Assembly: GCA_030529665.1 (NCBI GenBank)
Contig: JAUMWL010000002.1
Span: forward strand, 3,986 to 67,985
Direction of reading: 5' to 3'
Origin: Coriobacteriales bacterium
GTDB taxonomy: Bacteria; Actinomycetota; Coriobacteriia; Coriobacteriales; Atopobiaceae
DNA: 64,000 bases
Numbering within the stretch: position 1 is the stretch's first letter; each line of letters begins with the position of its first letter. The position numbers and the translations under genes are program-made. This document shows, piece by piece, positions 6,799 to 63,200 of this stretch. The notes under the pieces are model-generated. The model searched no databases and had not been told where the DNA came from. It saw only the letters and a program-made list of their open reading frames with translations.

Positions 6799-6982
6799 TA
6801 TGGTCCGCCTCCCGTGGCTCGGTCTTACAATCGGTGCAGGGAACGCCATGGTCAAATGTTGCAACCTTCCCGATCTATGGTTTCAGGTCTTGGGTCTGAC
6901 CGCGCTGATTGGCCTACGCCGAATACTAAGAATAGGGGGTTTCGCAGATTGGTACAATCGTTGGGCATGTTAGGAGGAGAAC

Positions 6983-7606
6983 GTGAGCTACATCCCTGAT
7001 GAGCGATTTGTATTCTCGAGCTGTGGACGGCGATTGAACGGAGGCAAGCCTGATCTTGAGGCATTCCTAAAGACGAGGGTGCGGAAGATAGTAAACTGGG
7101 GCACCCTCCTATACACCTCCAAGCACGTAGGGACCCGCTACGAACGCGGTACGTGGAACTACGACTTGGGGGAGGGGCTTTCCTACACGATGGAAAGTCC
7201 GGGAGGGCTTCTGTATAGGGACTTTGTCCTGACGGCCCGCAGCTTCATCGAAGTTCGTATCCCGGGGAGTAACGTACGCGGATGTCAATCGACTGATTTG
7301 TCGGTTCAGGAGGCCGTTGAAGGCTGGTGTCCAGAGGCGGGAACACTTCGCACCCTCCTCCTGTTTCCAGCCGCCCACGATGCCTACTTCTCCTTCTTGA
7401 ACCCGCTGTCGCTTGACCTTTATTCGAGGGAGAGCATCGGCCTGAGGTGCGACACGACCCCCTACGATAGGGAGCAGGCAAGCGTCGTCGATTACATCAC
7501 GATCGAGGCGAGAATCCATCCCGTGGGAATCAAGATGGCGGCTTTCCGAATTCGTGAGCGCGGGTGGCCATACAGCGCGGTCGAGGAATACGGGAACAGG
7601 TGGTAG
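6983..7606 (+). CDS. Hypothetical protein
   Basis: The GTG start at 6983 is preceded by TAGGAGGAG. The 207-aa ORF has balanced composition, and I recognise no motif in it. Confidence 0.5.
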   Translation: MSYIPDERFVFSSCGRRLNGGKPDLEAFLKTRVRKIVNWGTLLYTSKHVGTRYERGTWNYDLGEGLSYTMESPGGLLYRDFVLTARSFIEVRIPGSNVRGCQSTDLSVQEAVEGWCPEAGTLRTLLLFPAAHDAYFSFLNPLSLDLYSRESIGLRCDTTPYDREQASVVDYITIEARIHPVGIKMAAFRIRERGWPYSAVEEYGNRW

Positions 7607-7834
7607 CATGTCGCTTGGATCAGCCCGCAGGATAAGCCCGCCTTCTCGCGATGCGCTTTTTTAGCCAGGTCGACCGTTTGATAGGAACGCTCATCCGGAT
7701 GTCCCAGGCATTTCGACGAATGCGTTGTGTAGGAGCGACTACCACTCTCGCCACTTCCACTCCGTTTCTACGACACCCTGGAAGCCTGGCTTGAAAATGA
7801 GCTTTGCCAATCTTGGCGCACTGACTTCCCCGGA

Positions 7835-27168: not shown

Positions 27169-28824
27169 CTAGTTGTCATCCGCGAAGAGGGCGTCGAGCT
27201 CCTCCTGTAGGCTCTGCAAGTCGAGGTCGTCGTGCGCAAGCGGTCCCTGAGGCTGTTCGTCTCCGTCGGGCCTGGCGCGCACCTCTTCTTCTGGGGTCTC
27301 GAGGGCGTCGTCTGCGGCGTCTTCCTTGGCGAGGATGGTGTCTATCATGTCGTCGAGGAGCCTCTCGGCGCCGATGTCCCACGGGCGTCCAGCGCACTCG
27401 TCCGCGTCGTGGAGGTCGAGCATCCGCTCAACCACGTCATCGCGACTGACCCTCGCCTTTCGTGGAGCGGGTGCGGCATGGAGGTCGAGGTGACGACCAT
27501 ACGCCTCAAGCGGTTCCATATGCGTGCCGACCATTGGCTTGCCGGCGACGCACACGTACGCGTCGCCCGGTCCCAGGCGCAGCATATGGCCTACGTCTAT
27601 TGCCCCTCCGCTCTTGAACTCAGCGTCACTTGCGATCTCATGAGAGATGTTGGACATATAAATGTTAACGGCAGCCTGTTCCAGAACCACGTTTGCCTCG
27701 GCGCGGGTGTAGAGGCCGCGTTCTAGGAATTGTGAGAAGGACTGCAGCGTGAGATACGCCGTGCAGTTTCGGCTGCGACCGGTGGCCATCAGGGCCAGTA
27801 TCTGCTCGCAGCGGGGTAGGCGCGCGAATTCGTCCACGATAAAGCACAGCCCGAACAGGTCCGTTCCTTCGAGATTGCGCCGTTCGAACTCGTCCATGTA
27901 CGATGCTGTCGCGTACTCGATCAGGTGGACGGTGTAGTTGCTGCACAGTTGGTTGTTGTCCGGGGAGATTACGTAGATGCAGGTGGGCCAACCGCTTCTG
28001 AAGAAGTCGGTCCTAAAGTCGATGTTCGAAGAAGCGGCCACGTGGCGTCCCGTGCTGGTGGCGTAGAAACCGAGCATGGCGCTTACCACGCTCTTGACGC
28101 ACGACCACGTGGTCTTTGCGTGTGTGAGGTCGAAGGAATCGAGTATGGCTTTAGGTGTCTCGTCGCCGAGGTGATCCGCGAGCCAACGCAGCTTGTTCTC
28201 GTCGTGAATGGCATCGCAGACGTCGGCGAGGGAGGGCTCCTCGTCCTCTGTCAGGCAGAGTGCCATGGAAACTGCCGAGATGAGATTCCACGAAACGGTT
28301 TCCCAGTAGGAATCCTTCTCGCTGTGGACCGAGGCGATCGTGGCGGCCTTGATCTTCGAGAGGGATGCCTCGGCCAGCGCGACATCACCCGTTTCCTTGA
28401 TGATTCTAAAAGCCTCGGTGAGCGGGCTCCAGCGTCCCTCACTCTTCGAGGACATGAGGTCGACGACCTTGACCTCGTAACCTTGGGACTTGAGGTACGG
28501 TGCGGTCTCGCGCCACATGGTGCGCTTGCTATCCACGATTACCATGGACTTTGGGTGCTCGCCCTTGCCGCGTCGGGTCCCGTTGACGATAACGGTGGGT
28601 TCGAGGCAGGAGCGCGTCTTGCCTGCGCCGGTGCGACCGACGACTACGGCGTGCTTCCCGGGAGGGGTACACCACGTGACGGACGAGGGACCGCCTCCGC
28701 AGACGAGGCCGGACGCCTTGCCGCCTTTGATGTCGTCCAGGGTATAGGGGACGAGGCCGGCGCTGTGTGGGTTGCTGGTCACGGTTTTCTTCGAGACCGC
28801 CTCTGCGTAACTGACAATCTGCAT
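27169..28824 (-). CDS. TraG/TraD/VirD4-family (type IV coupling protein-like) P-loop ATPase without TM segments
   Basis: Walker A is VVVGRTGAGKTRS and Walker B is LCFIVDEFARLP. This is followed by ALMATGRSRNCTAYLTLQSFSQ, as in T4CP/TraG-D_C modules. No N-terminal hydrophobic helices are visible. The ATG at 28824 is separated by 1 nt from the stop of the upstream gene. Confidence 0.75.
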   Translation of the reverse strand: MQIVSYAEAVSKKTVTSNPHSAGLVPYTLDDIKGGKASGLVCGGGPSSVTWCTPPGKHAVVVGRTGAGKTRSCLEPTVIVNGTRRGKGEHPKSMVIVDSKRTMWRETAPYLKSQGYEVKVVDLMSSKSEGRWSPLTEAFRIIKETGDVALAEASLSKIKAATIASVHSEKDSYWETVSWNLISAVSMALCLTEDEEPSLADVCDAIHDENKLRWLADHLGDETPKAILDSFDLTHAKTTWSCVKSVVSAMLGFYATSTGRHVAASSNIDFRTDFFRSGWPTCIYVISPDNNQLCSNYTVHLIEYATASYMDEFERRNLEGTDLFGLCFIVDEFARLPRCEQILALMATGRSRNCTAYLTLQSFSQFLERGLYTRAEANVVLEQAAVNIYMSNISHEIASDAEFKSGGAIDVGHMLRLGPGDAYVCVAGKPMVGTHMEPLEAYGRHLDLHAAPAPRKARVSRDDVVERMLDLHDADECAGRPWDIGAERLLDDMIDTILAKEDAADDALETPEEEVRARPDGDEQPQGPLAHDDLDLQSLQEELDALFADDN

Positions 28825-37033: not shown

Positions 37034-39730
37034 GTGTGTACCTGCCTGCATTGTGAGTCAAACATCGTCGAGGAAAGCGTCTTCTGTCCGTTCTGCGGGG
37101 AGCCGACCGGCCTTTGCCCAGAGCGGAGCGACTACGAATACGAGGCATTCATAAGCTATCGCCACCTCCCGCTCAGCTCAAAGGTCGCCAGACGCATGCA
37201 GCACGACATCGAGGGATTCCGCATACCCAGGGAGCTGCGCGGCGAGGATGGAAAGGTGCGGCTGGGCAGGCTCTTCCGCGACGAGGACGAGCTGCCCGCG
37301 TCCACGTCCCTGAGCGACCAAATCCGAGAGGCGCTCGCCCGCTCCAGGTTCCTCATAGTCGTCTGCACGCCGGAGACGAGGGAAAGCAGATGGGTGGAGC
37401 GCGAGATCGAGCTGTTCGCCTCCCTGCACGGTCGCGACAACATCCTGGTCGCCCTCGCAGAAGGGGAGCGTTCGAAGTGCCTGCCAGACGTGCTGCTGTA
37501 CCGCAAGGTCGTGACGGCGAATGGCTCGGTTGTCTCTGAGCCTACGGAGCCGCTTGCGGCTGACTTCCGTGTCTCGTCCCGCAAGAGCCGCTGCGACGAG
37601 ACCCTGCGCATTGTCGCGGCGCTCCTTGGCTGTGGATTCGACGACCTGCGGCAGCGCGAGCGTGCGAGGAGAAACGCGTTTGCTGCGAAGGTTGCCATTG
37701 GTGTGACGCTGGCGATTACGGCGTTCCTCGGGACGGCGCTCCACCAGCAGGGACGGATCATCGGGCAGAAGCAGCAGATCATCGACCAGCAGGAGGAGCT
37801 GCTCGGGAAGGAGCGAGAGCTGCAGGTCAACCAGTCGCGTTACCTCGCGAAGGAAGCCGACGAGCTTCTGGCTCAGGGAGACCGGACGCAGGCGGTGCAG
37901 GTCGCCTTGGCCGCCCTCCCTCAGAGCTCTACGAGCGCCGACAGGCCCTACGTCCCAGAGGCGAGGGCCGCGCTCGAGCGGGCGGTTCGGACGTTTCCCA
38001 CGGAGGACGGGTGGTACCCCTCGTTCTCGCGTGGCGAGGGGGCTGTCGTCGACGTGGCGACGTGCGACTCGCTCGGAAGATATGCCGTCCTGGACTCCAT
38101 GGGAAGGCTGAGGGTCTACTCGATAGACGACGGGAAAGTCATGGACGACATAGATCTCGCAGACGTGCTCGGGGACGACATTTCTCCGAGTGGTGCCGAG
38201 GCATGGATGCTTGATAACGGCGCGGTCGTCGTACGCAAGGACAACGAGGTCCTCTGCGTAGGTCAGGGACAAGCCGAGGGTGACAGCGGCATCGCATGGT
38301 CCTTCGACTGCGACGCGGATGGCTTGTACGTCAATTGTGTCGACGTGTCCGAGGACGGCTCGGCAATCGCCCTTTCCGGATCGTCGACGGAATGGGCCGA
38401 CGACCCCGACTTCATAGAAAAGGCATGGATAAAGCTTCTCGATCCCCGCACGGGAGAGGTCACGGGTTCTTTTGATCTGGCAGAAGGGCAGGACGTATCC
38501 AACGCAGAGGCGATCCGCCTCGATCGGACCGGAGGGTGGGCCTTCGTCGCGTTCGGACAGGATGCCTACATCATTGACGTCGAGTCCAAGGCCGTAGCCA
38601 AAGCAAAGCTCGCGAATCCCGGCTGTGAGGGAGTAACCTGGACCGGGAACAGGGTCGTTGTGGCAACGCAGGACTTCTCTCAGCCATCTCCCGTTCCATA
38701 CGCCATACAGTGCTTTGACACCAAGGGCACTGAGGTGTGGCGGACGGAGGGAGGGATTTCGCCTATGTCCTCAAACGGTGTCGCATACGACGGGACAGCA
38801 GGCCTGTGGGCGCGGCTAAAGGGACTCGGCGACCACGGCGAGTGCCTGGTTGCCTCTTTGGGCGGGCGCCTGGTGACGCTGGACCTTCAGGACGGTTCAC
38901 AGCAGGCTGTTGCCACCATTGACTCGCCCATCGTTGCATGCCAAGTGCTCGACGAAGGGGACTGTCAGAGGCTCAACGTATGCTTGGCCTCTGGGACGCT
39001 CATGTATTTGACCTCGGATGAGGATGGAGTGGCCTCGGGTAGCTCAATTGACGCGAGCGTGGGAAACGTAAAGCATGCCTCGTTCCTGCGGACTAACGAT
39101 GTGACATATCTTGTGGCGAAATCCTCACTCGACGAGAGTGGCAACGACAAGGTGTCCGTATGGGAGCTAAGTTCTACGGGACACCTTCGAGAGGGAGCAG
39201 ACGACGGCAGCGCCTGGTCGAGACCAGCTGATGGCCCCGAGATTGAGGAGAGCCTTACAAAGACCGTCGCTCGCCTCAAGGACGTGAGGCTCGCTATGCA
39301 AGTTCCAGAGTCGACTTCGGCAGTTGTGCAATCTGAAGGTCATCTCTTGCTCATCGATACCGAGACTGGCGACACTCTAGCAAGGTCTTTGGGCGTATAC
39401 GAGGAAGCTCATGGTTGCGGCTTCGCGGAAGATGGCAAGACTTTCTATGTTCAGGTTCCCATAGTGGACGACTACAAGGGGCGTTCCTGCCTATACGTGT
39501 TCGACCTCACATGCGGTACCCTCGCTCCTCAAAGCGTCATCCCGTTCGGCGTTATGGTTTCAGAGGACGGAGGAAAGGTCCTTTTGGACGATGGCAGCAC
39601 GTTGCGTGCGCCAACATGGGTTATGGACTACCCCACGCTTGACGAGCTCCTGGAACGAGGACGGGAGCTGTGCCAGGGATTCGAGCTGTCTCCCGACGAG
39701 AGGGAGGCCCTCTTCGTCGAGGCCACCTAG
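37034..39730 (+). CDS. Zn-ribbon - TIR - single TM - coiled coil - beta-propeller protein
   Basis: The N-terminal zinc ribbon is CLHC...CPFC. The TIR signature is YEAFISYRH...LFRDEDELP...SRFLIVVCTPETRESRWVEREIELF, with a candidate catalytic Glu in WVERE. One TM helix (FAAKVAIGVTLAITAFLGTAL) is preceded by RQRERARRN, which by the positive-inside rule places the TIR in the cytoplasm. Then comes a Gln/Glu-rich coiled coil and about 550 aa of blade-like repeats (GRLRVYSIDDGKV, LLDPRTGEV, CFDTKGTEVW, GGRLVTLDLQDGS). The GTG start at 37034 follows AGGAAGAG. Confidence 0.8.
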   Translation: MCTCLHCESNIVEESVFCPFCGEPTGLCPERSDYEYEAFISYRHLPLSSKVARRMQHDIEGFRIPRELRGEDGKVRLGRLFRDEDELPASTSLSDQIREALARSRFLIVVCTPETRESRWVEREIELFASLHGRDNILVALAEGERSKCLPDVLLYRKVVTANGSVVSEPTEPLAADFRVSSRKSRCDETLRIVAALLGCGFDDLRQRERARRNAFAAKVAIGVTLAITAFLGTALHQQGRIIGQKQQIIDQQEELLGKERELQVNQSRYLAKEADELLAQGDRTQAVQVALAALPQSSTSADRPYVPEARAALERAVRTFPTEDGWYPSFSRGEGAVVDVATCDSLGRYAVLDSMGRLRVYSIDDGKVMDDIDLADVLGDDISPSGAEAWMLDNGAVVVRKDNEVLCVGQGQAEGDSGIAWSFDCDADGLYVNCVDVSEDGSAIALSGSSTEWADDPDFIEKAWIKLLDPRTGEVTGSFDLAEGQDVSNAEAIRLDRTGGWAFVAFGQDAYIIDVESKAVAKAKLANPGCEGVTWTGNRVVVATQDFSQPSPVPYAIQCFDTKGTEVWRTEGGISPMSSNGVAYDGTAGLWARLKGLGDHGECLVASLGGRLVTLDLQDGSQQAVATIDSPIVACQVLDEGDCQRLNVCLASGTLMYLTSDEDGVASGSSIDASVGNVKHASFLRTNDVTYLVAKSSLDESGNDKVSVWELSSTGHLREGADDGSAWSRPADGPEIEESLTKTVARLKDVRLAMQVPESTSAVVQSEGHLLLIDTETGDTLARSLGVYEEAHGCGFAEDGKTFYVQVPIVDDYKGRSCLYVFDLTCGTLAPQSVIPFGVMVSEDGGKVLLDDGSTLRAPTWVMDYPTLDELLERGRELCQGFELSPDEREALFVEAT

Positions 39731-39762
39731 ACGACATGAGGAGCTTCATCGTATCCAGGTAG

Positions 39763-39933
39763 ACCACCGCCAAGGCCAAGAGCTTCTTCACCGTAAACAA
39801 GACGAGTGGCAAGGTGACCGTGAAAGGCATGCCAAAGAACATGTACCAGTTCCAGATCAAGAGCACCGCGAGTGCGGGCGCCAACCACAACGCTGGGTCC
39901 AAGACGGTGACGGTCACGATCGTCGTCAAGTAG
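39763..39933 (+). pseudogene. Orphan 3' fragment of a cell-surface Ig-like-repeat protein gene
   Basis: The 56-codon frame has no start codon and an in-frame TAG immediately upstream. It reads ...KSFFTVNKTSGKVTVKGMPKNMYQFQIKSTASAGANHNAGSKTVTVTIVVK-stop. That matches the stereotyped last repeat of Gram-positive surface proteins. Confidence 0.5.
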
Positions 39934-40064: not shown

Positions 40065-40787
40065 ATGATGTCAGGTGGGTGTTCGGCTATGTACGACGGT
40101 ACCCTCGATGGTCTTATGGAGCTTGCGCTCGACAACGACGGGCTGCTCACGACTGCGGAAGACAGTCCTTTCAACGATCCTGTTTTCGGGTTCCTCTTCC
40201 GCATTGCGTGGGCACTGTTCGGGCTTGGCGGCTCGATTGCGAGCAGGCTGGGCCTGCACGGTTTTGACTGGTCACTGTTCTTTGCGGGGCTGGTGGCGGT
40301 AGGTACCCTCTTCATCGTCTACGTCGCCTTCAGGGCGACTCGCATGCTCCTCGGTCGCGATGTCGAGTTCGAGTACTGGAAGTATCTGAGGACGTGCGAA
40401 GCATGCCATGTTGAGCCGAGCACCTCCTCGTTCGCGTTTCGCCCCCAGAAGTCGTTTCTCGTCATCGTGCTGTCGCGATTGCGCCCCTTAGCCTTTGCTT
40501 TCGTGGCGCTACTCCTGTTTCTTGCGCTATCCAAGTTCGCTGTTGCGATGGCCCCCAACACGGTCTTCGGTAGCGATCCTTTGGGTAGCCACGCGCGGTA
40601 TCTTGCCGACTTTGCGTTGACGCTCATTCTCCAGATTGCCATACGATTGTTGGTGGTCGTTCTCGTAATGTGGGTGTCATACGTCGTGTTTCGACGAATC
40701 GTGTCGGCACTGTCGAGGACGGCCCTATACGCCACAATCGAACGCCGTATGTCAAAAGGCCGCGCAAAGGTGGTGCGGAACCGATGA
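40065..40787 (+). CDS. Polytopic (about 4 TM) membrane protein, translationally coupled to the downstream STAND NTPase
   Basis: Four hydrophobic segments are FGFLFRIAWALFGLGG, SLFFAGLVAVGTLFIVYVAF, LAFAFVALLLFLALSKFAV and LILQIAIRLLVVVLVMWVSYVVF. The start is uncertain: ATG 40065/40068, or ATG 40089 preceded by AGGTGGG. Its TGA (40785-40787) overlaps the next gene's ATG (40784-40786). The N-terminal 158 codons of ORF 39591-40787 are judged non-coding. Confidence 0.6.
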   Translation: MMSGGCSAMYDGTLDGLMELALDNDGLLTTAEDSPFNDPVFGFLFRIAWALFGLGGSIASRLGLHGFDWSLFFAGLVAVGTLFIVYVAFRATRMLLGRDVEFEYWKYLRTCEACHVEPSTSSFAFRPQKSFLVIVLSRLRPLAFAFVALLLFLALSKFAVAMAPNTVFGSDPLGSHARYLADFALTLILQIAIRLLVVVLVMWVSYVVFRRIVSALSRTALYATIERRMSKGRAKVVRNR

Positions 40788-43700
40788 GGCGGAAGACCTT
40801 CAGGCTGTTTGTAAGCTCCACATTCCTCGACTTCGTAAATGAGAGGTCCATTATTAACGAGCGACTGTCCACACGGCTGGAGTCATACTGCGAGCGCTAC
40901 GGGTACGGCTTTGAGGTGGTGGACCTTCGTTGGGGAATCGGAGAGATCGCATCGGAGAATCAACTGACGCTCGACATATGCCTGAATGAAATCGCGCGAT
41001 GCAAGCTCTATGCCCCACGACCGCACTTCCTTTTGATGCTTGGTGGAAGGTACGGTTCCATACCGTTGCCCACCGAGCTGGCGCCGAACGCATACGAGAC
41101 GATTGTCTCGACGTTGGAGGCAGAAGAAAGCAGTCTTGTCCGACATTGGTACGAGTTCGACGACAACTGCTTGGGCGGGACGTACAGGCTCAAGCCACGG
41201 AAGGGTAGGTTCAGGGACTATTCCGACTGGTCAGGCGTTAAGCGTGGGCTCCTCACGGCAATCGGTTCGGCAATTGACGCGAATCCGGCAATGGCATCCG
41301 ATGGCCTTACGCTCGCCTCGATGACCGAGCATGAGTTCAATGCGGCGCTACTGAAGCACGACATGTGCGAAGGCTCCGTGGTGGTGCTGCGGGAAGGCGG
41401 GGAGAACGAGGAGAAGGCGCACGAGCTGAGAAAGCGCGCTGCGGAACTCATGAACTCAAAGGGGCTTGCCGATAGAGTGGTCGAACTCCGCCAAGGGGAA
41501 CCCGGATATGAGCAGAGTTTCGAAGACGAGGTGTTCCGCCTGCTGACGCAGCTCGTCGACTCGGAGGTAAGAGCGTCCGCTCGTGATGATGCCGACACGA
41601 TCCTTCCTTCACGCGAGACGAGCCGGGTTTTCGTGGGAAGGGAGCACGAGATTGGGCTCCTGCGCGAATATGCGTCCTCATCGAGCCGGTCCGTCCTATG
41701 GGTTCATGGACCCTCGGGGAGCGGCAAGACCTCGCTGCTCCAACGATTCGTGGACGAGTATCCCCATCGCAAGGCGTTCGTGTCCTACGGCAGGTCTGAA
41801 GACACGTTCACCATGGGTGGCGCGGTTCGCGAGATCCGACGCCAACTCGCGGATGGAAACGGTGCCGAAGTCGTGCCTTACGTCGATGGCTCGAACCTTC
41901 CCGAGGCACTTTTGAGCGAGCTGTCCGCGAAGGCCAACGAGCATGCCCCTCTGCTCGTCGTCATCGACGGTCTCGAGAGCTTGATGAACAATGGGGACGT
42001 GAATGAAAACGTCTTGCCCTCCACACTGCCTGCGGGGGCGAAACTCGTCGTCTCTTGGGCGCATGAGGACGCCCGTCCTTTCGCATTGCCCTTTGCGGGC
42101 CAAGAGCTCGTGCTGGGGGCACTCTCAGACGAAGAGGCGCTTCTTGCCGTCGATGCCCGCCTCGCGTTGGGCGGACGACGCGTTGCGCCCGATAATCAGA
42201 GAGAGGCCATACGCGACTCATTCCGTGTCGCCGCTACCCCCTTGCAGGCCACATTGATATCAAATATCGTGTCGCGCTGGTCGTCGGGATTCCGGGACAC
42301 CGAGCTTCCCCTGACTCCAAGGGAAGCAGCGCTGGCATATATCGATGGCGCGTTCCTGCTTCTGGGGCACGGGCGTGAACTCGTTCTGCATTCAATGGCG
42401 CTGGTTTGCGTCGCCCCTTTCGGGATTTCCGAGCGGGAGATCCTTGACGTCCTCCAATCTATTGGGGGGGTGCGGGAGGAGTTTCTGGGGCAGGATAGAT
42501 ACGGGCACTCCGGTGATAAGCTGCCATTCGTGGTGTGGTCCCGGCTATATTACGATTTGCGGGAGTGCCTTGAGACCGTGCTCTTCAAGGGCGTGCCCGT
42601 GGTGAGGTTTGTCCACAGCATATTCAAAGATGCCGTGCATTCAGCCCATGAACCATACTGCAAGAGGGCGGTAGAGGCCCTGCTGCGATACTACTCCTCG
42701 CGACCGGCGCATGTGGACGCTCCATGGACTGCGCCGGACACGATGCGAGCGGCGAATCTACCGGCGCTCCTGGGAACGGCGGGAAGAGACGACGAGCTTG
42801 CGGAATTGCTCTGCGCAAGCGAAGAGCTCGATGCCGTGCTCCAAATCGGCGATTACGAGCGCGCGCTGGACGCGCTGGCACGACTTGGCGGGCGACCGGA
42901 CGGCCTGCTTCGGGAAGACGTCGTTGCAATGTCTTGGTACCTGAGAGCGCATAGGGGGACTCTCTCCTGCTTTCCAAGGTCTCTACCTGCCGCCATGTCA
43001 CATGAGCTGGGCGTCGACAGAAGGAGCAGGCTCGGCCGCGGAGCGAATGGTTTGGCGGATTCGAGTGGGTCCCTCATTCCCGTGCCGCACCCGCCGAACT
43101 CGGGGATCGCCTTGTCCTTGGACGGCGACGAGATTGCGATTTGGCACGGCCCTTGGGTATACGTGTACGGACCGGGACTGACCGCAAACTGTCGGATTTA
43201 CAACACTGCAGATTCCGGAGCGGGACTCGTGATCACCTCCCTGTGCTGGCTTGCCGGCAGCGAGCTGGCGGTTGGGCTTTCAGACGGGAGGATTGTGACC
43301 TATGACGTACACGTGCCGCCTCCCTCGCTGGTCGTGAGTGTCGCCTTGGAATCCCCCGAGTACCTGAGTTATTCGTCCTGTCTTGATGTGGTGGTTGCCT
43401 CAACAAAGAGCTCGCTGGTTGCAATTGACGCTCATCGGACGGACGTCAGGCTCCTAGCCGAATTGCGGGAAGAGAGCTCGTGGTGCATGTCAGCCGACGG
43501 GCTTGCCGTTCACGTGCGCGACCGCCGCAGCGTGAGGTCGATAGCAATAGTGGATGGCACCACGATTACGGAGCGAAGGGTGCATGCTGATGGACACCTC
43601 GTGGGAGAGCTCCCGGACGGTAGACTTCTGCTCGACGGTTATTCCATCATCGACGCGCACGGGACCGCGGTTTATTTCAAGGTTCCTCGGCAGGCGGAGA

Positions 43701-45010
43701 TTGTGTCCTCGCTTCTGTCGCGTGACGTCCTGGCATGCACGTATCCAGACGGGGTTTTTGTCATCCGGCCTGCCGTGGAGACCGCTGGACACTGGATTTC
43801 GGTACCGCATACGGGAACGTCCTCGTTGTCTGCCACCGGGGATACGCTTGCGGCCTTGTCGGATTACGGCCTCGCAATTCGTTCGACAGCGCACGAGACG
43901 ATGGAGAAGCTGCGAGCAATCCCCGTCTTCGTGAGCCGTCGTCCCATCGACTACGAGCGAGGGATGCTCTCCTTGTTGCCACGGCTGGTGGCATCATTCG
44001 TCAGGATGGACATCGCGCTTCATACGGCTCGTAGCTGGGCAAATCTGCGCCTCAATGCTCTCGGGGAGGCCGTAAAGCGCTGGGGAATCGGTGCGCTACG
44101 CGATGGTGGCGCGGTGCCAGGCATCGGCAGGGCGACTCTTGTCGTACAGTCTGTGGCCGGGTGGACTGCCGTGGCCTACGAGTTCTCCGACACGGTTGCC
44201 CTGTATGACTTAGGGTGGAGCGAGCGCATGCGAGTGGATCGGCTGAGATTTAGCGCGTTTGACCCTCTGTTGGGCATGGACCTGTCTGCGGATGGCGGGC
44301 TTCTCCTGATTTGCCGACCGTCATCGGTCACCGTCTATCGCACGCATGATGCAAGCCGAGCGCTCGAGATCAACCTCACGGGTGGTACGCTCGTGTCGGC
44401 GGCATTGGAGGAGGGTGGAATAGTTGAACTGTATGGACTTAGCGGAACGACTCGGCGATTCCAGGTTGGGAATCGACCAAAGCGTTGCGAGGTGGTCGAT
44501 TGGCCAACATATCCACGAGACGACGTAGCTGCGACCGTGCTCTACCCCACCGCTTCCGGAGCAGAATGCGTGGTCGTCAAGGCCCGCAAGGGCATAACGA
44601 CCACTACCTACGACACGTCTTACTATTGCGGGAAGAATCATAGCTTGCTCTACTGTGACGGAGCCTTTTTCCTCGATGGCGACAAGTCAAAACCCTTCCT
44701 ATCGTCGGAATACGATTTCGGCCAGTGCCTACGGGAGGAGCGTCAAAAAGAGCCCGACGACTTGATTCGGTTCATTAGGGAGAAGAACGATTTGACGAGT
44801 AGCCTTTATGACCTCGACGAACGTTTTCTGCTACTCGTCTGCAAGAGGCTCTCGTCGGTAATCCTGTTCGACATCGACTCTCTGTCGGTTGCCGATGCCT
44901 ACAGGACCCAAGATGAAATAATAGGCTCCCGCTTTGATGCCGACGCAAGCGAGGTACTTTTGTTCAGTAACTCATCACCACACATTTCAAGACTGAGATT
45001 GACGATCTAG
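40784..45010 (+). CDS. DUF4062 (TIR-like) - NACHT/STAND NTPase - beta-propeller-like repeat protein
   Basis: The N-terminus is FRLFVSSTFLDFVNERSIINERL...GYGFEVVDLRWGI (DUF4062 signature). Walker A is LWVHGPSGSGKTSLLQRF and Walker B is PLLVVIDGLESL. The C-terminal ~650 aa has WD40-like blade motifs (e.g. ITSLCWLAGSELAVGLSDGRIVTYDV). The start is ATG 40784 (MRRKTFRLF). Confidence 0.8.
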   Translation: MRRKTFRLFVSSTFLDFVNERSIINERLSTRLESYCERYGYGFEVVDLRWGIGEIASENQLTLDICLNEIARCKLYAPRPHFLLMLGGRYGSIPLPTELAPNAYETIVSTLEAEESSLVRHWYEFDDNCLGGTYRLKPRKGRFRDYSDWSGVKRGLLTAIGSAIDANPAMASDGLTLASMTEHEFNAALLKHDMCEGSVVVLREGGENEEKAHELRKRAAELMNSKGLADRVVELRQGEPGYEQSFEDEVFRLLTQLVDSEVRASARDDADTILPSRETSRVFVGREHEIGLLREYASSSSRSVLWVHGPSGSGKTSLLQRFVDEYPHRKAFVSYGRSEDTFTMGGAVREIRRQLADGNGAEVVPYVDGSNLPEALLSELSAKANEHAPLLVVIDGLESLMNNGDVNENVLPSTLPAGAKLVVSWAHEDARPFALPFAGQELVLGALSDEEALLAVDARLALGGRRVAPDNQREAIRDSFRVAATPLQATLISNIVSRWSSGFRDTELPLTPREAALAYIDGAFLLLGHGRELVLHSMALVCVAPFGISEREILDVLQSIGGVREEFLGQDRYGHSGDKLPFVVWSRLYYDLRECLETVLFKGVPVVRFVHSIFKDAVHSAHEPYCKRAVEALLRYYSSRPAHVDAPWTAPDTMRAANLPALLGTAGRDDELAELLCASEELDAVLQIGDYERALDALARLGGRPDGLLREDVVAMSWYLRAHRGTLSCFPRSLPAAMSHELGVDRRSRLGRGANGLADSSGSLIPVPHPPNSGIALSLDGDEIAIWHGPWVYVYGPGLTANCRIYNTADSGAGLVITSLCWLAGSELAVGLSDGRIVTYDVHVPPPSLVVSVALESPEYLSYSSCLDVVVASTKSSLVAIDAHRTDVRLLAELREESSWCMSADGLAVHVRDRRSVRSIAIVDGTTITERRVHADGHLVGELPDGRLLLDGYSIIDAHGTAVYFKVPRQAEIVSSLLSRDVLACTYPDGVFVIRPAVETAGHWISVPHTGTSSLSATGDTLAALSDYGLAIRSTAHETMEKLRAIPVFVSRRPIDYERGMLSLLPRLVASFVRMDIALHTARSWANLRLNALGEAVKRWGIGALRDGGAVPGIGRATLVVQSVAGWTAVAYEFSDTVALYDLGWSERMRVDRLRFSAFDPLLGMDLSADGGLLLICRPSSVTVYRTHDASRALEINLTGGTLVSAALEEGGIVELYGLSGTTRRFQVGNRPKRCEVVDWPTYPRDDVAATVLYPTASGAECVVVKARKGITTTTYDTSYYCGKNHSLLYCDGAFFLDGDKSKPFLSSEYDFGQCLREERQKEPDDLIRFIREKNDLTSSLYDLDERFLLLVCKRLSSVILFDIDSLSVADAYRTQDEIIGSRFDADASEVLLFSNSSPHISRLRLTI

Positions 45011-45163: not shown

Positions 45164-45373
45164 TTAGTAAGACCAGCGTCCTTGGGAGTCCTGGAACCGT
45201 TCCCCGGGACGACGCCAGTTGCCTTGGCCGTCAACGAAGTCCTCACCAGGCTTGCGCCAATTGCCACCTCCGTCCACGTAGTCTTCTCCCGGCCTGCGCC
45301 AGTTGCCGCCCCCATCAATGTAGTCGTCACCATCGTTGCGCCAATAGCCTGCGCCGTCGTAGAATCCGCCCAT
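45164..45373 (-). CDS. Small Gly/Trp/Asp-rich tandem-repeat protein (69 aa)
   Basis: The sequence is MGGFYDGAGYWRNDGDD / YIDGGGNWRRPGED / YVDGGGNWRKPGED / FVDGQGNWRRPGER / FQDSQGRWSY. A purine-rich SD (GAGAGGAGAGGGAAGAAGGA) precedes the ATG at 45373. Confidence 0.6.
   Translation of the reverse strand: MGGFYDGAGYWRNDGDDYIDGGGNWRRPGEDYVDGGGNWRKPGEDFVDGQGNWRRPGERFQDSQGRWSY
45171..45373. repeat. About 4.8 degenerate tandem copies of a 42-bp coding repeat
   Basis: Unit boundaries read directly from the sequence are 45171, 45213, 45255, 45297 and 45339. Each full unit starts CGCCA[GA]TTGCC on the plus strand and encodes the 14-aa unit above. Confidence 0.8.
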
Positions 45374-45434
45374 TCCTTCTTCCCTCTCCTCTCATGGTGC
45401 TAATGCGTAGGTGTTTTTCTGCAGCCTGCTTGGC

Positions 45435-45755
45435 CTATTCCTCTTCAGAGAGGATTGATCGTGCCAGCACGTCGATTGCGGTGTCGAAGTTAGCTTGCTT
45501 GGCCTTTGAATCCTCTCGTTTGAGACGGATGACTTGCAATGTGCCACCGATAATCGCACAAAGGATGCAAACTGGCACTACTCCACCGATTGCCAACCAC
45601 GGGAACAGGTTATCAATGGCGGCTTGCCCGAGGAAGCCGACTAGAAGCCCAAGGAGCCCACCGATAACCATTCCCTTTGCTATGGCTGTGGCGTATTCTC
45701 CCTTCGAATGCATCCAATAGTAGTCAGCGGGCTTGTAGTTCGAAATTTCTGACAT
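45435..45755 (-). CDS. Small membrane protein (2 TM)
   Basis: ATG 45755 follows GAGAGGTGA. The hydrophobic helices are GMVIGGLLGLLVGFLGQAAI and WLAIGGVVPVCILCAIIGG. Confidence 0.55.
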   Translation of the reverse strand: MSEISNYKPADYYWMHSKGEYATAIAKGMVIGGLLGLLVGFLGQAAIDNLFPWLAIGGVVPVCILCAIIGGTLQVIRLKREDSKAKQANFDTAIDVLARSILSEEE

Positions 45756-45794
45756 GGATTATTCACCTCTCAAGTTCCATCTATCGACGATTTC

Positions 45795-46022
45795 CTACAT
45801 CCTGCTCATGATTCCCAGGAACCCGAGAACCAGCTTGAGGACGGCCAATGCCGCAAATAGCCAAGAAAAGAGCAGAGAGCACAAAGCCTTGACTGCGATG
45901 CTCGCGGGCTCCCTTCGATCAAGCCACTCGTTCCTACCGGTCATAAACTGCCACCCTTTGTACGCTCCCCACGCGCAGATTGCGAGGAGGGCTACCTCCA
46001 GTACTCCGCCGTTTCCGCCCAT
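45795..46022 (-). CDS. Small membrane protein (75 aa, 2 TM)
   Basis: The ORF is trimmed to ATG 46022 (MGGNGGVLEVALLAICAWG...), 8 nt after AAGGAGG. The second helix is LCSLLFSWLFAALAVLKLVLGFLG. Confidence 0.5.
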   Translation of the reverse strand: MGGNGGVLEVALLAICAWGAYKGWQFMTGRNEWLDRREPASIAVKALCSLLFSWLFAALAVLKLVLGFLGIMSRM

Positions 46023-46217
46023 GCAAGAACCTCCTTCTCGTCTTGCGCTCCGTCTGCCTGCGGTTGCGCGACCCTTATCATGGCTATCATTATCCGATGG
46101 GTCTGTGTCGCCATTTGCGCAATGCATCACGGCCCAATTTGCGGATTCTCGTATAAGCGCATCGATTGTCTCGGCCCTTTCCCCTACACATGCACACGAT
46201 TCATGACGGGCATTGCC

Positions 46218-46286
46218 TGAGTGGTAACCGCTTCTGGTACCGCTCTAAACGTTTTGAGTTGCGGTACCAGAAGCGGTTACCACTCA
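46218..46286. repeat. 26-bp perfect inverted repeat (69-nt hairpin)
   Basis: TGAGTGGTAACCGCTTCTGGTACCGC-(17 nt: TCTAAACGTTTTGAGTT)-GCGGTACCAGAAGCGGTTACCACTCA. It lies in the intergenic space between two minus-strand small-membrane-protein genes. Confidence 0.85.
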
Positions 46287-46416
46287 CATTGCCGCTGACG
46301 CAATACGACTCTCACACTATTCAATCTGCTGACACACTGTCGCATTGATTTCATCAACATGAAGTGCAAAACGTATATCCCTTTGCTACACGCGTTGGCG
46401 ACACGGATTGTCTCAT

Positions 46417-46728
46417 CTATACCGGCCATAAGAGCCAAAGAAGCCCTCTGAGCAAATCGATACCATGCACTTGCGAATTCGTGAGCAGTAATCTGACGAG
46501 ATGATAAGACATGTGACTCATTAGGATGCCCATGATGATGCCGCCGATCATTTCGGAGGCCGTCGATTCGCTAGCGAAGGCGAATGTACCAATCCAGCAT
46601 AGCAACGTGCTGATGACAACGACCACTGCGATAATCCACGCCACGGTTGTTATTTCCATTCCGAGCAATCCAAGAAATACGAACGCAGCAATTAGCAGCA
46701 AGAATTCAATCGGGTATATGATGTACAT
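46417..46728 (-). CDS. Small polytopic membrane protein (103 aa)
   Basis: ATG 46728 (MYIIYPIEFLLLIAAFVFLGLLG...) follows TAGGAGGAG. The protein is almost entirely hydrophobic. Confidence 0.55.
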   Translation of the reverse strand: MYIIYPIEFLLLIAAFVFLGLLGMEITTVAWIIAVVVVISTLLCWIGTFAFASESTASEMIGGIIMGILMSHMSYHLVRLLLTNSQVHGIDLLRGLLWLLWPV

Positions 46729-46866
46729 GTCTCCTCCTATCAATCTCGATGAAGGGATCTTCCCTTACAAGAAAAATCGTACTAGTACCCGTGGGTTGTG
46801 GTTACGCAATGCCTTCCTCCTAAACGACTGGACGAGGATTGTGGGGACAATGGCTGCCCTTTGCGT

Positions 46867-54299: not shown

Positions 54300-55835
54300 T
54301 TAGGGCTTGGGTCTTACTACCATCAGCCGTGCACTTCTCACAAGGGGGATGAGTTGGCGGACGGCGTCACGGTCGTACTCCTTGATTCTTTCGCTCAGCC
54401 TGTCATACGGCACGAGGTATGGAGAGGTCTTCTTTTCCGGATCGCCGCCGCTAGAGCTCTTGTCGAGGGTCCAACCCGCCTCAAGCCTCTCCCTCATCCA
54501 CCTGTCGTGTTCTAGGCGTGCGAGTACCTCGATCTGCTCGTCCGTGAACGAGGTGACTTCCTCGTACTCGCTGGCCCGCTCCTCGGGCACAAGCAGGTAG
54601 CCGAGTGCGCGCACCTTGTTGGGAACGTGCTCCGCCTGAGCGTAGTTCGATCGCCGCAGGTCTAATGGCTGGTCCTCGACCCTCTCGTATATCACCTCTA
54701 AGCCCTGCTTGCGCCTCAGCGCCTTGTAGGTCTCGAACTTGGCGGCCACGATGCGGTCTACCATCTCGGTGAGTCGTGCCTCAGCTCCGTTCATGCAAGC
54801 TTTCATGTCTTCTCCGTCCAGATAGGGCCTGTGATAGCTCCGCGCATGCGCGAGGAGTGTTCTTGAGGCAAAGACTGTCTCATTCACTGGCGTGAGGCCG
54901 AGCCTCTTCGCTAGCGGGTCTATGTCAATCGCTTGGTTAAGGTGCCTAGCATACGGCGGTGCGGCGAGGCTTGAGTAGCTGAAGTACCCAACCGACTCTT
55001 CGAGGAAGTTGAGGAAGTCGTCGATTGCGTCGGCGGAATGTCGTATTCCGTTGAGTGGTAGGTCGTTGCGGATTAGGTGGTACTTCAGCGCGCCAAGGTA
55101 CCCCATGTCCAGTTCCAGCGGGTTTGGTTCAAGCATGCAGTGGGCGCCAACCACGTGCGACGGGATCTCGGAAAAGAGTGTGCCGAATAACGGCGCGCGT
55201 GCGACGAGTTCTCCTACCATTAGGGCCGCGCTCAACTCAAAATCAACGACCGTCGCGCGGATGTCTGCTGGTCTTTTGCCGAAGCGCCGTACGCATACGT
55301 TCTCGCATCGCAAGTCACGATGGTACACACCTGCCTGGTGCGCGTTATGCAGCTGTGCGTACACGTCGAACAGTATTTTGAGGTTTTCCAGCTCTCGCTC
55401 TGGGGTTCCGGGCGCGTGGAGGATTGGCCGTTCCCCGTGCTGACCGGCTTTGTTCCGTAGAATCTGGGCGAGGTTCTCGCCCGCGTCTCGCTCGACGATT
55501 ACGGGTGCCGCGACTCCGGTTCCGGTGAAGCGGTGTTGGGAGACTGCCAGCAGCTCCGGCCCGACGCCTAGGCTCGTGAGCAGGCCGAGATTGGCGCACT
55601 CGTCGCCGAAGGCGACCATAGATGTGGGCTCGAACGCCACTGCACACGCCGCCACCACTTCGCTTTGGACCCCGCTTTCGAAGGTTCCGCGATAGATTCG
55701 TTTCCGCTTGGATGAGACCAGTGGTGTCTGTGCGGGGTTGTACGTGAATCTCCAGTTCCCGTATGTGTCCTCGATTATGCCTGACTCTGCCGTCTGCGGC
55801 TTCGTGGATACGTACTTGGCCGTGGCGTTAATCAT
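54300..55835 (-). CDS. Protein-kinase-like domain fused to a C-terminal RyR domain
   Basis: The catalytic loop is GVYHRDLRCENVCV, and VVDFELS replaces DFG with DFE. I could not find a clear beta3 VAIK lysine. The C-terminus LARLEHDRWMRERLEAGWTLDKSSSGGDPEKKTSPYLVPYDRLSERIKEYDRDAV matches the RyR-domain consensus (W...GW.YG....K..P.LVPY..L.E..K..DR). ATG 55835 follows GGGAGGG and overlaps the PP2C gene by 8 nt. Confidence 0.75.
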   Translation of the reverse strand: MINATAKYVSTKPQTAESGIIEDTYGNWRFTYNPAQTPLVSSKRKRIYRGTFESGVQSEVVAACAVAFEPTSMVAFGDECANLGLLTSLGVGPELLAVSQHRFTGTGVAAPVIVERDAGENLAQILRNKAGQHGERPILHAPGTPERELENLKILFDVYAQLHNAHQAGVYHRDLRCENVCVRRFGKRPADIRATVVDFELSAALMVGELVARAPLFGTLFSEIPSHVVGAHCMLEPNPLELDMGYLGALKYHLIRNDLPLNGIRHSADAIDDFLNFLEESVGYFSYSSLAAPPYARHLNQAIDIDPLAKRLGLTPVNETVFASRTLLAHARSYHRPYLDGEDMKACMNGAEARLTEMVDRIVAAKFETYKALRRKQGLEVIYERVEDQPLDLRRSNYAQAEHVPNKVRALGYLLVPEERASEYEEVTSFTDEQIEVLARLEHDRWMRERLEAGWTLDKSSSGGDPEKKTSPYLVPYDRLSERIKEYDRDAVRQLIPLVRSARLMVVRPKP

Positions 55836-56655
55836 GCAACCCTCCCATTGTGGGTCTCCGTGTGCCGCGATGAAATCTAGCAACCAAAGCGGTCGAGTCG
55901 TCACGCGAGGGTCTACCAAGCACTATCTTTGCTGCGGTTTCCCTTGCGGTTATTTCCGTAGCGAGAAGTCTACCGATTTCCTCACGACCAGTAGCTCGCC
56001 ATGCGCCGTCGGTGCAGACTGCGATGCAGTCGACATCGTCGATACTATCACTGACAGTGACCATTCGTCCATCGTTGCTCTTTCCCAGTGGCGGGGTCGT
56101 GCCAAAGAGGTCTGCGTCGAGGCTCGAGACGACTTCGTGCGGCTCTCGTCCCCTCTTCAACACAAACAAGGCAGTATCGCCAGCCCAAGACGCTTCCAGC
56201 TTCTTGCCACGTAGGGCTATGACCACTAGGGACGTACCGCTTCTTAAAGAATCGATGTCCGACACGAACCTCATGACTTGGTCTTGTGCCGCAACGACTG
56301 CCAATTCCGTAGATCCATTCCTTTTGAGGACGCGCATTGCCGCGTGGCAGGCATACCGAGCCACGGCATCACCGAGTGGCGCGCCTCCAATTCCGTCGGC
56401 TACGCATGCGTACATTTTCTCTCCGAGAAGCACGTAGTCTTCGTTCGGTCGTCCATCCTTTCCGACGCTGCAATAGTCGATGTCGATTGCGATCGGATTG
56501 TGTGTCTCGCCCATCACGTCGAGCTTTTCCATAACAACCAAGGTGTCCTCCTCGTTCCACCGAACCTCGTGTTTTATCTGGCTAATCCATACGCCTTTCC
56601 ACCCGCAGACAGCACACGGCATTTGATGGCCTGCCAGTAACGCATGCGATTCCAA
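55828..56655 (-). CDS. PP2C-family phosphatase
   Basis: Motifs are NEDYVLL, YACVADGIGGAPLGD and IAVCTDGAW. The start is uncertain: TTG 56655, ATG 56622, or ATG about 56532 downstream of GAGGAGGA. Confidence 0.7.
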   Translation of the reverse strand: MESHALLAGHQMPCAVCGWKGVWISQIKHEVRWNEEDTLVVMEKLDVMGETHNPIAIDIDYCSVGKDGRPNEDYVLLGEKMYACVADGIGGAPLGDAVARYACHAAMRVLKRNGSTELAVVAAQDQVMRFVSDIDSLRSGTSLVVIALRGKKLEASWAGDTALFVLKRGREPHEVVSSLDADLFGTTPPLGKSNDGRMVTVSDSIDDVDCIAVCTDGAWRATGREEIGRLLATEITARETAAKIVLGRPSRDDSTALVARFHRGTRRPTMGGLHD

Positions 56656-60284: not shown

Positions 60285-63200
60285 ATGAGGATCTTTATTA
60301 GTTACGGCCACGACCAAAATGTCCCAGTGGTCGACTTGATTCGGCGAGACTTGGAAAAGCGTGGCCACAGGGTCTTTATTGACGAGGCCGACATCAAGTC
60401 CGGCGACGACTGGAGATATTCCATCACAAAGGCCCTTCTTGAATGTGAGACGACGTTCTCGTTTGCTAGTGCCTACTCCGTAAGGGTGCCTGGCGTTTGT
60501 CTCGAGGAGCTATCGATTGCAGTTGGGGTAAAGGGTGCGCTAGTACAGTCAATCGTCCTTGAGGCGAATGTTCGGCCCCCCGCCACCGTTCGCTTCAGAA
60601 ACAGTATAGACATGATTGGATGGCAGTCCCATGTTGGTGACCGCGATGGCCTGGCGTGGTATAAAGATTGGGCCAAACGGCTGCACGATGCCGGGAGGAG
60701 CCCGCAGAGGAAAGCGGTCTTCTCGGAATACTGGGGGTCGTTCTTTACCGATTTCCTGTCCTGTGACGGCAGGTTCCAAGAGTGGTATAAGCCCAAGCTC
60801 GACCAAATCATTGCCGTGGTGGAGGATGCCAGGGTTGTCGAGTACGTTAGCCAAATGAACGAGCTGCGAGCGATTCTTTCCCCTGACGAGGACAATGTCA
60901 AGCAGCATACGTTTGAGAGGGAGGTCTACAACGGCCGTGCATGGCTCAAGGAAATGCTCGACGAGTGGATGGGGGATGAGCACGCTCCGAGAACGTTGCT
61001 GGTAACAGGGGCACCTGGTGTCGGCAAGTCTGCATTCGTAGCGCACGAGCTGTTGTTCAACGAAAGGGTGGGCGCTGCCGTCTACTGCGAGTGGAACAAT
61101 CCAGTGTCAAACAACCCAGAATGCGTGGCCAGATCCATTGCGTTCCAATTGGCAAGCAGGTTCCCAGACTACAGGCTGCGTCTTCTGAACTTGGTCAGGG
61201 GGGAACGCGCCCAGAAAGACAATCCCACGTCTAAGTGTGAAGGCACCGCTTTCGAACGTTACGTCATCAAGCCACTGAAGAACCTGATAAGTGTTTCCCG
61301 TCCTACGATGGTCATACTGGTAGACGGAATAGATGAGCTTGAACGCCCGGGAATCACCACGAAGTGGGATGAAACGATTCCGGGTATGATTGCCTTGCAC
61401 GAGCAGAACCTGCCTCCCTGGATTCGCTTCGTTGTAACTTGCCGAAGACATTCCGACGCAATCTCCCACCTTCGCAAATCGACCCGCGTAGACATTGAGG
61501 AGTCTTCGGGTGAGAACGTGCGGGACGTACGAGAGTACATTGCTCTACGGCTTGAGACCGACTTGAGTGACCGAAGGGTTGAACGCGTTCTCACGGCAAG
61601 CTCTGGCATCTTCCTTCACGCCAAGCTCTTATGTGACGAGATTACCTATGGTTGGGTTGACCCAGATGCCTTGCCACGAGTCCCTCAACCACTAGGCATG
61701 GTATACCGAAGGTACTTCGATCGCATGTTTTCTGATGCGGTTTCAGGTTATGTCGGCGAATCTTTCAAGGGGTATGCTGAGGCGTTTAGTGTTCTCTCTG
61801 TCTGCCCCGAACCGGTGCCGGTTCGGATACTGAGGATGTCGGCTGGTTGGAGCGACCCAGACTTTACGTCGTTCCTGATCCGTTGCGGTCATTTCGCTTC
61901 TGTAGCCGGTGGGTGCGTAACGCTGACGCACAAGTCGATTGCAGATTGGCTGCGTTCGCCGCTTGCCGGAGAATACCAAGTAGACACGGGCCTTGGTTTG
62001 CGGGCGCTCGCCACAGTATGCTTTACAGAGTACGAGAACGGTGTCATGAGGATGGGGGACTTCGGGCTGGCAAACCTGATCGGCTTCGTGGAGGACGCAA
62101 GGGCGTCGTGCTTGTCTCGCTCTGACGATCGCGAAACCTTTGCGCTCATGCTTGACCGTCTGATCTCCGACGTTATTTTGGCTAGGCTACTCCTGAAGAA
62201 GGCCAAGGACAGCATTGCGGTATGTCGATATGACACGGCAGAGTCGTTCTCTCGTGATGCGGTGAGGGTGTTTGGCGGACGACTCAGATCCGGTCGTGGG
62301 GACTCGGAAGACGTCGGGAAATTGGCCGAGGCATACCTTTCTCTTGCGGATTCTCTGGACCTTGCTGTGCGCCTTGAAGAGGCTGTCTCATGCTGTGACG
62401 AAGGCATTCTTGACCTCAGGACCGCGCAAGAGGTTCTCTTCGTCGATGGTGAGCCTGCGTCCCGAGGCATTGGGTATCTCGCCATGAAGCGGGCTTATGT
62501 GTTGTACCGCCTTGGATACCACTCTGACGATGTCGAGAAAGGGTATTGGTCTGCGTACCGATGCCTAAGAAAAGCGGACGAGGCGATCGGCGCTGCCGAA
62601 TCTCTCGTGCGACTAAGCGCCTTCTACCGACAAAACGGCAACAACGCTAAGGCAGCGGGTTGCGCAGACGCAGTCGAGGACTGCCTAGACCTTGCACAGT
62701 GCGCAAAGGATAAACCCGAGTTGTTCTGTTTCATCCGAATCTATCAAGGAGACGCCTACCTTAATGCGGAGAGATTCGATGATGCGGAGGCGTGTTTGCG
62801 CCAAGCAGAGCGGACGTCGTTCGAGCCGTGGGTAAACCTATCTGCTGCGATGAGAGCCCAACTACACTTCCAGCTGTCCTCTCTGTACTACCAACGAGGG
62901 GATTACGAAGATGCCGAAGCCCAAGCAGTGGACGCGCTACGCTTCGAACGTTTGGCATATGGAGAGACGTCCGTAGAATCGTGTAACGGGCTTAACCAGC
63001 TGGGCTGGTGTTTGATGGGTCGCGGCAAACCACGCGACGCACTGAAGCAGTTTGAGGAAAGCTATCGGATACGAAGAATCCTGTACGGTGACGACAATCC
63101 TCTCACGATCATCTCGCTGAGGAACTGTGCGTCTGCACGTATGGAACTGGGAGGAGAACACGTCGAGATGGCCGAAAGCGAGTTGAGCCGCATACTCGCA

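Follow-up and report, generated by a model that had tools for sequence, protein, structure and literature searches.

A polytopic membrane protein gene translationally coupled to a DUF4062-STAND NTPase gene suggests a two-gene form of NLR-like defense proteins

The gene pair and its junction

The window analyzed here is a 64,000-nucleotide (nt) stretch of contig JAUMWL010000002.1 from a Coriobacteriales bacterium (assembly GCA_030529665.1), and all positions given without a locus name are those of the window. It carries two overlapping genes on the plus strand, the first encoding a small polytopic membrane protein (hereafter, the partner) and the second a STAND NTPase with an N-terminal DUF4062 domain (alternatively termed NIR). 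The pair, its junction, and the parts of the STAND protein are as follows:

40065..40787, plus strand: partner gene, small polytopic membrane protein of 223-240 amino acids (aa) (hydropathy, positive-inside rule, homolog alignment)
40767..40787, plus strand: coupling junction, with the Shine-Dalgarno (SD)-like AAGGTGGTG (40767-40776) in the partner 3' end, then an ATGA stop/start overlap (40784-40787)
40784..45010, plus strand: DUF4062(NIR)-STAND NTPase-beta-repeat protein, 1408 aa, no predicted transmembrane (TM) segment
40784..41503, plus strand: DUF4062/NIR TIR-like domain, aa 1-~240, with a ~80-aa insertion (aa 97-178) (Pfam, PDB 11gz_A, AlphaFold2 (AF2))
41630..43018, plus strand: STAND NTPase module, P-loop domain aa ~283-445, then helical and winged-helix domains aa ~446-745 (Pfam, AF2, Foldseek)
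41708-41731: Walker A; 41966-41968: Walker B (D395)
43121..45007, plus strand: C-terminal beta-rich repeat region, aa ~780-1408 (collinearity with the homologs L004, P0003, and P0004, described below)

As an earlier first-pass annotation of this DNA had claimed, the partner stop codon (TGA) overlaps the ATG start of the STAND gene in the ATGA at 40784-40787. The SD-like AAGGTGGTG lies about 8-16 nt upstream of this start, within the last partner codons, and an SD-like motif inside the partner 3' end recurs in every partner-bearing locus (10/10), at junctions ranging from -17 to +7 nt. A consensus scan around the pair, which is uninformative for a G+C-rich organism, returned no sigma-70 promoter and no convincing terminator. 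That partner and STAND gene form a translationally coupled two-gene unit, conserved in the closest STAND clade, is supported by these junctions and by the comparison of loci below.

The true start of the partner is ambiguous among ATG codons at 40065, 40068, 40089, and 40116, the last of which corresponds to the database gene call of 223 aa; its homologs P0097 and P0098 are alignable only from residue 33, and the 3' overlap with the STAND gene is independent of the start chosen. A 102-aa open reading frame (ORF) on the opposite strand (39621-39929, minus), whose N-terminal half is strongly hydrophobic, lies in the 334-bp gap between an upstream TIR gene and the partner and overlaps the 3' end of the TIR gene; it may be the cause of the long open plus-strand frame upstream of 40065. 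The four TM segments claimed for the partner are found as four hydrophobic segments in its 240-aa reading (aa 40-58, 71-89, 142-160, and 183-201), of which the first is weak (Kyte-Doolittle hydropathy 1.66). A K/R-rich loop of ~45 aa follows the second segment (9 K+R, with the motif GRDVEFEYWKY), and the C-terminal tail is likewise basic (10 K+R); both are predicted to be cytoplasmic by the positive-inside rule, and these loop and tail regions make up the cytoplasmic parts of the protein, which has no ligand-binding cytoplasmic domain. The window partner matches no Pfam or PADLOC family. At E <= 1 it has no Pfam holin match; its resemblance to holins is one of general topology alone, and the Pfam DUF4231/SLATT models match neither this protein nor six other partners. 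More broadly, PADLOC assigns no family to any partner protein, and Pfam families are also absent except for one sub-threshold DUF4231 match (in locus L151).

The DUF4062 module reported in the STAND protein, and its TIR-like character, are borne out by Pfam (PF13271, 35.9 bits against a cut-off of 24.7, aa 7-95) and by a match of aa 4-98 to the solved TIR-like domain of TEP1 (PDB 11gz_A, E 1.2e-9), and a NADase role for this domain has been described in 2026 preprints (cited below); the similarity of the N-terminal domain to KpSwz (10wc_A) is at the level of motifs only (E 0.58). Residues S11-S12-T13-F14, D16, E20-R21, D47, R49-W50-G51, G91, and E184 are invariant in 47/47 homologs. E184 (nt 41333-41335) sits after the ~80-aa insertion in an S179-x-T181-x-x-E184 motif, and by motif position it is the putative equivalent of the catalytic Glu of KpSwz (E97), PsAvs2 (E108), and TEP1 (E1008). 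The DUF4062 domain is likely to be a fused effector, as judged from sequence.

The NTPase module also retains the Walker motifs previously noted: Walker A (G309-P-S-G-S-G-K315-T316) is intact, with G309, G312, G314, and K315 invariant in 47/47 homologs, as is Walker B (hhhhD395), in which D395 is conserved in 46/47. For aa 1-805, an AF2 model based on an alignment of 47 sequences has a predicted local distance difference test (pLDDT) score of 82.8 (>90 over the DUF4062 region) and a predicted template modeling (pTM) score of 0.85, and Foldseek searches with this model recover Avs3 (8dgc), Apaf-1 (1z6t/3sfz), the plant NLR ZAR1 (6j6i), NOD2, and NLRC4 with probability 1.0 and E-values of 1e-9 to 1e-6. 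AAA_16, nSTAND1 (29.3 against 27.1 bits), and NPHP3_N all score above their Pfam cut-offs. The NACHT assignment made by the first-pass annotation holds for the family better than for this protein: Pfam NACHT (PF05729) matches only the P-loop stretch here and stays below its cut-off (19.9 against 26.7 bits), and the DUF4062-STAND family is probably NACHT-related, because many homologs do have PF05729 matches. The bNACHT and Avs models of PADLOC-DB 2.0, which had been proposed as a check, gave no match; the sole, weak match was of STAND_TPR to the P-loop (E 1.4e-9).

The C-terminal ~630 aa are beta-rich and collinear over their full length with L004, P0003, and P0004. The WD40-like blades claimed for this region stand in part: a comparison (hhalign) of the clade's C-terminus with the WD40 repeats of relatives gives a probability of 82% and E 1e-5 at aa ~1115-1213 (nt 44126-44422), and Pfam ANAPC4_WD40 reaches only 18.4 bits in the window protein, below its cut-off of 22.9. 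The same model scores 24.4 bits in L004, above the cut-off, and L084 has a COPA/B propeller match of 29 bits, below cut-off. The region probably forms one or two divergent beta-propellers, a tentative identification, and is the presumed sensor.

Conservation of the pair and relationships of the partners

In a homolog search covering 5.8e9 proteins, the closest relatives of the STAND protein are P0003 and P0004 (28% and 27% identity, respectively, over 60% of the query), both of which are encoded directly downstream of a partner: a 203-aa protein with four TM segments and an 11-nt overlap in locus L001 (P0003), and a 256-aa protein whose TAA abuts the STAND ATG in L002 (P0004). A one-genome-per-species scan yielded 80 DUF4062-STAND loci. 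In the best of these (L004, from a Clostridia metagenome-assembled genome, E 8e-105), 3 nt separate the end of a polytopic ORF from the STAND start, and among the other 79 a polytopic partner occurs only in L048 and L055 (Neobacillus). A metagenome scan contributed L084 (E 1e-95), in which the partner is joined to the STAND gene by an ATGA overlap. In the L084 partner, a signal-anchor is followed by an LRR_5 domain (79 bits) and then by three TM segments and a basic tail, and the LRR_5 is predicted to be an extracytoplasmic ectodomain.

We analyzed the phylogeny of 102 loci using the NTPase-helical region (458 columns). In this neighbor-joining tree, the window, L001, L002, L004, and L084 form an exclusive clade in 60/60 bootstraps, which the Neobacillus pair joins in only 4/60; the clade is not resolved when the tree is built from only the first 230 aa (DUF4062 domain). 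Every member of the clade (5/5) has a polytopic ORF ending within -11 to +3 nt of the STAND start, as compared with partner presence in 2/139 other DUF4062-STAND loci (Fisher p = 4.4e-8). The two-gene unit proposed by the first-pass annotation is thus upheld in the closest clade, where the membrane gene is conserved beside all five homologous STAND genes, and does not extend to the wider DUF4062-STAND family.

The two exceptions outside the clade come from RefSeq genomes of named strains, Neobacillus niacini and N. vireti (L048/L055 3460-4002), and have a 180-aa ORF with four TM segments in a 17-nt overlap with the start of a DUF4062-NACHT-type STAND gene (1514-1515 aa). This arrangement, with an unrelated four-TM partner, looks like an independent origin.

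The partner arrangement is also present in three further loci (L149, L150, and L151). In L149, the STAND N-terminus is 59% identical to that of the window protein, and in L151 (P0017) the partner is a polytopic protein of 361 aa with about six hydrophobic stretches by eye and an 8-nt overlap. Overall, the G+C content of pair-bearing loci spans 31-60%.

When 1.84e9 representatives were searched exhaustively (phmmer) with the window partner, only two true homologs were recovered, P0097 (34% identity, E 1.7e-22) and P0098 (31% identity, E 3e-15). Both directly precede a sequence encoding a DUF4062-STAND N-terminus, which the P0097 gene overlaps by 4 nt and from which the P0098 gene is separated by 7 nt. 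These three proteins are one clear family, sharing the motifs GL[YH]G[YF][DH]W, GRD[PV][DE]x[EN]Y[WL]KY, YLxD, and a C-terminal [SA][KR]GR. Beyond this family, a word-indexed homolog search with the window partner returned only itself, a profile of five partner sequences retrieved only two of its own members, and pairwise BLAST among the clade partners was not significant; in the low-G+C partners, a TM helix is followed by a basic/aromatic stretch with a loose resemblance. The partners agree in gene position, in coupling, in polytopic topology, and in having a basic tail on the cytoplasmic side, but not in sequence, and because homology across the clade is unproven, we refer to them as positional and topological counterparts.

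Genomic neighborhood

The window is rich in defense-like genes, which include a DEDDh exonuclease and PP2C and Ser/Thr kinase genes (PD-T4-6-like and mad6-like matches). The surrounding features are as follows:

27169-28824, minus strand: type IV secretion system coupling protein (TraG/VirD4-like)
37034-39730, plus strand: TIR protein, 898 aa, 334 bp upstream of the partner gene
45164-46743, minus strand: ORFs convergent with the STAND gene, comprising a 69-aa ORF built of G-N-W-R-[RK]-P-G-E-D-[YF]-V-D repeats and three small ORFs of 106-111 aa
47655-51646, minus strand: cluster of a microbial PARG-like gene, two radical-SAM genes (weak pVip-like PADLOC matches), and a 286-aa ORF
54300-55919, minus strand: RyR-domain protein, also with a kinase-like region with PD-T4-6 matches
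60285-63548, plus strand: second NLR-like gene, TIR_2 - NPHP3_N/AAA_16 - TPR, 1087 aa

The 898-aa TIR protein has a CxxC...CxxC N-terminus (zinc-ribbon-like by eye), a TIR_2/ThsB_TIR domain at aa 80-152, one TM segment at aa 215-233, and a PQQ_2/BamB-like beta-propeller region. A sensor shared by this protein and the STAND protein was considered and rejected, because its propeller region and the STAND C-terminus are not significantly similar. TIR-domain genes flank the pair in three of the loci with readable flanks (the window, L084, and L151); these may represent a third component or mere clustering within defense islands. In L084, a TIR_2 protein is encoded 110 nt downstream of the pair on the same strand (6900-7925, plus), and in L151 a TIR_2+FtsK_SpoIIIE protein is encoded 155 nt upstream, also on the same strand (1-1768, plus). 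A RyR-domain protein is also found beside the L084 module (828-1139, plus). Each of the three 106-111-aa ORFs convergent with the STAND gene has 1-2 hydrophobic segments.

The G+C content of the window falls from ~0.60 to ~0.53 downstream of 45 kb. A TraG-like gene is also located near the module in L002 (691-1521, plus), and carriage on a conjugative element is suggested because TraG/VirD4-like genes occur near the module in two loci (the window and L002). The pair sits in a defense island, on what is probably such an element. Phage records and IMG/VR contain no relatives, and matches among plasmids are to the DUF4062 domain only.

Predicted function of the pair

The DUF4062 domain is a TIR-like NADase in Swarozyc and human TEP1 (10.64898/2026.05.01.722283), in PsAvs2, Vulcan, Vesta, and other NLR-like proteins, where it is termed NIR (10.64898/2026.09.04.749371), and in Evangelion (10.64898/2026.06.25.731849). 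In Swarozyc, PsAvs2, Vulcan, Vesta, and Evangelion, defense requires the catalytic Glu and acts by NAD+ depletion (same three studies). None of these three reports mentions a transmembrane or membrane partner, and a survey paper on STAND proteins makes no relevant mention of one. Fused C-terminal TM domains were noted in a study of bNACHT proteins, in which operons were rare and poorly conserved (Kibby et al., 10.1101/2022.07.19.500537).

The gene pair resembles the NIR/DUF4062 NLR-like proteins (PsAvs2-type Avs, and bacterial TEP1/NWD1-like DUF4062-NACHT-WD40/TPR proteins) in its DUF4062 domain with a conserved, putatively equivalent Glu, Apaf-1/NLR-like STAND module, C-terminal repeats, and defense-island context. 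Unlike these proteins, which are described as single-gene, the clade has an obligate-looking, coupled polytopic partner; in addition, the window repeats have diverged too far for recognition by Pfam WD40 or TPR, the NACHT match is below cut-off, and PADLOC yields no Avs or bNACHT match. Membrane association of an NLR-like NTPase is shared with the bacterial NACHT/STAND proteins that have fused C-terminal TM domains (10.1101/2022.07.19.500537), except that here the TM module is a separate gene. In Vesta (10.64898/2026.09.04.749371), a DUF4062 gene is likewise strongly associated with a second gene in a two-gene system; however, the Vesta partner VstB is a soluble alkaline phosphatase, and VstA is small and lacks a STAND NTPase. 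A functional analogy may be drawn with Kiwa (PMC11785009), in which a small multi-pass membrane protein gene (KwaA, four TM segments) lies just upstream of that for a cytoplasmic defense protein (KwaB), the membrane component sensing phage-induced membrane changes. The likeness to Kiwa involves no sequence relationship, PADLOC having assigned no family to any partner protein, and a STAND-NADase takes the place of the DNA-binding DUF4868 protein KwaB.

These comparisons suggest that the pair is a two-gene form of the known DUF4062/NIR NLR-like defense proteins, in predicted function. We infer the defense role of the clade and the tether or co-sensor role of its partner, and take the NADase activity and defense function of DUF4062 proteins from the literature. 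Specifically, we propose that the pair is a two-gene, NLR-like anti-phage module of the abortive-infection type, in which the partner is a membrane tether or co-sensor, a reading to which we give an even chance of being correct. The C-terminal divergent beta-propeller region of the cytoplasmic STAND protein would presumably bind a trigger, whereupon the NTPase would oligomerize and activate the fused DUF4062/NIR TIR-like domain, leading to NAD+ hydrolysis. The fast-evolving polytopic partner, produced by translation coupled to the STAND gene, would position or gate the sensor, through its cytoplasmic juxtamembrane loop and basic C-terminal tail, at the cytoplasmic membrane, the site of phage genome entry, and would not itself be the killing effector.

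A tether or co-sensor is favored because the STAND protein has an intact predicted effector domain, because relatives reach the membrane via fused tail-anchors or multi-TM regions, because the LRR domain of the L084 partner is predicted to lie outside the cytoplasm, and because P0003 and P0004 add a hydrophobic helix and a long extension. C-terminal TM anchors are fused in 6/106 other DUF4062-STAND proteins (L007, L026, L044, L070, L096, and L124), and P0009 has a multi-TM C-terminal half; in P0003 and P0004 (L001 and L002), the hydrophobic helix follows the repeat region and precedes an extension of ~800 aa.

Several points weigh against this reading. A hidden Markov model of partner family A, searched against 2226 ORFs, did not detect the partners of L001, L002, L004, L084, L048, or L055, and an hhalign comparison of partner families A and B gave E 0.02 and a probability of 2%, the best local match being the second TM segment and the juxtamembrane stretch. 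One conserved partner function across the clade is an assumption, because homology among the clade partners is not demonstrable. The AF2 model of the C-terminal 636 aa, from a 3-sequence alignment, is unusable (pLDDT 35.6) and does not establish the sensor fold, and PADLOC has no matching model for the pair. The partner topology (3-4 TM segments and a basic C-terminal tail) also fits holin-like or 2TM/4TM membrane effectors, and the L151 partner scores 17.9 bits against DUF4231, below the cut-off of 24.7; the predicted pore effectors known as SLATT have DUF4231 as their founding family.

The last of the sequence observations bears on the strongest alternative, the pore-forming effector role that the first-pass annotation had suggested for the membrane protein. 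The partner would then be a second, membrane-permeabilizing effector (holin- or SLATT-like), opened by the oligomerized STAND protein or by NAD+ breakdown. Its small size, 3-4 TM segments, basic C-terminal tail, and tight coupling with the sensor gene are consistent with this role, as is the sub-threshold DUF4231 match in L151, and membrane effectors are common in abortive-infection systems. The role is weakened by the DUF4062 domain of the STAND protein, since an intact predicted NADase effector domain (with E184 in 47/47 homologs) is already present and the membrane protein is not needed as an effector. Furthermore, sensor domains, nucleotide-binding or other, are absent from the partner, which matches no effector family in Pfam or PADLOC, and both the LRR_5-bearing partner of L084 (LRR_5 predicted extracytoplasmic) and the 361-aa partner of L151 are atypical for simple pore formers. 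The DUF4062 domain of TEP1 yields only ADP-ribose and nicotinamide, with no signaling derivative. We retain this explanation as a rival and regard it as unlikely.

More doubtful still is that the partner acts as a negative regulator (antitoxin-like) that holds the STAND-NADase inactive at the membrane and releases it upon infection. The partner gene comes first and translation is coupled, an arrangement familiar from many toxin-antitoxin pairs, a NADase is potentially toxic, and the partner in Vesta is dispensable for defense and has been suggested, by analogy with Metis, to prevent toxicity; however, auto-inhibition by the C-terminal repeats is the norm among STAND proteins, and ~137/139 relatives manage without a partner. 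Least probable of all is that the pair is co-transcribed for a non-defense function (e.g., a membrane-associated signaling NTPase) or that the partner is functionally unrelated: no known defense model matches, no relatives occur in phage or plasmid collections beyond the DUF4062-only plasmid matches, and human NWD1, NWD2, and NPHP3 lack NADase activity in vitro, but the pair is conserved across loci of 31-60% G+C, its distribution is patchy, its context is that of a defense island and mobile element, and ~20% of prokaryotic DUF4062 genes lie near known defense genes as compared with 3.9% expected.

A bolder form of the tether or co-sensor reading, which we offer tentatively and consider possible rather than probable, is that the clade represents a membrane-embedded surveillance complex, in which a hypervariable polytopic co-receptor, sometimes with an ectodomain (e.g., LRR_5), would report envelope or genome-entry events to a cytoplasmic STAND protein, which would then deplete NAD+. 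If true, a prokaryotic NLR-type sensor would here have an obligate membrane co-receptor, an arrangement undescribed in the literature searched.

The DUF4062/NIR domain was recognized only in 2026 as a NADase effector common to bacterial immunity and human TEP1/NWD proteins, and the STAND forms described are single-gene. A conserved, coupled partner would add a membrane-localized branch to bacterial NLR-like immunity, and annotation pipelines that score only the STAND gene may overlook a component that is required. The pair would also provide a tractable two-gene system for studying the place and manner in which a STAND sensor encounters its trigger.

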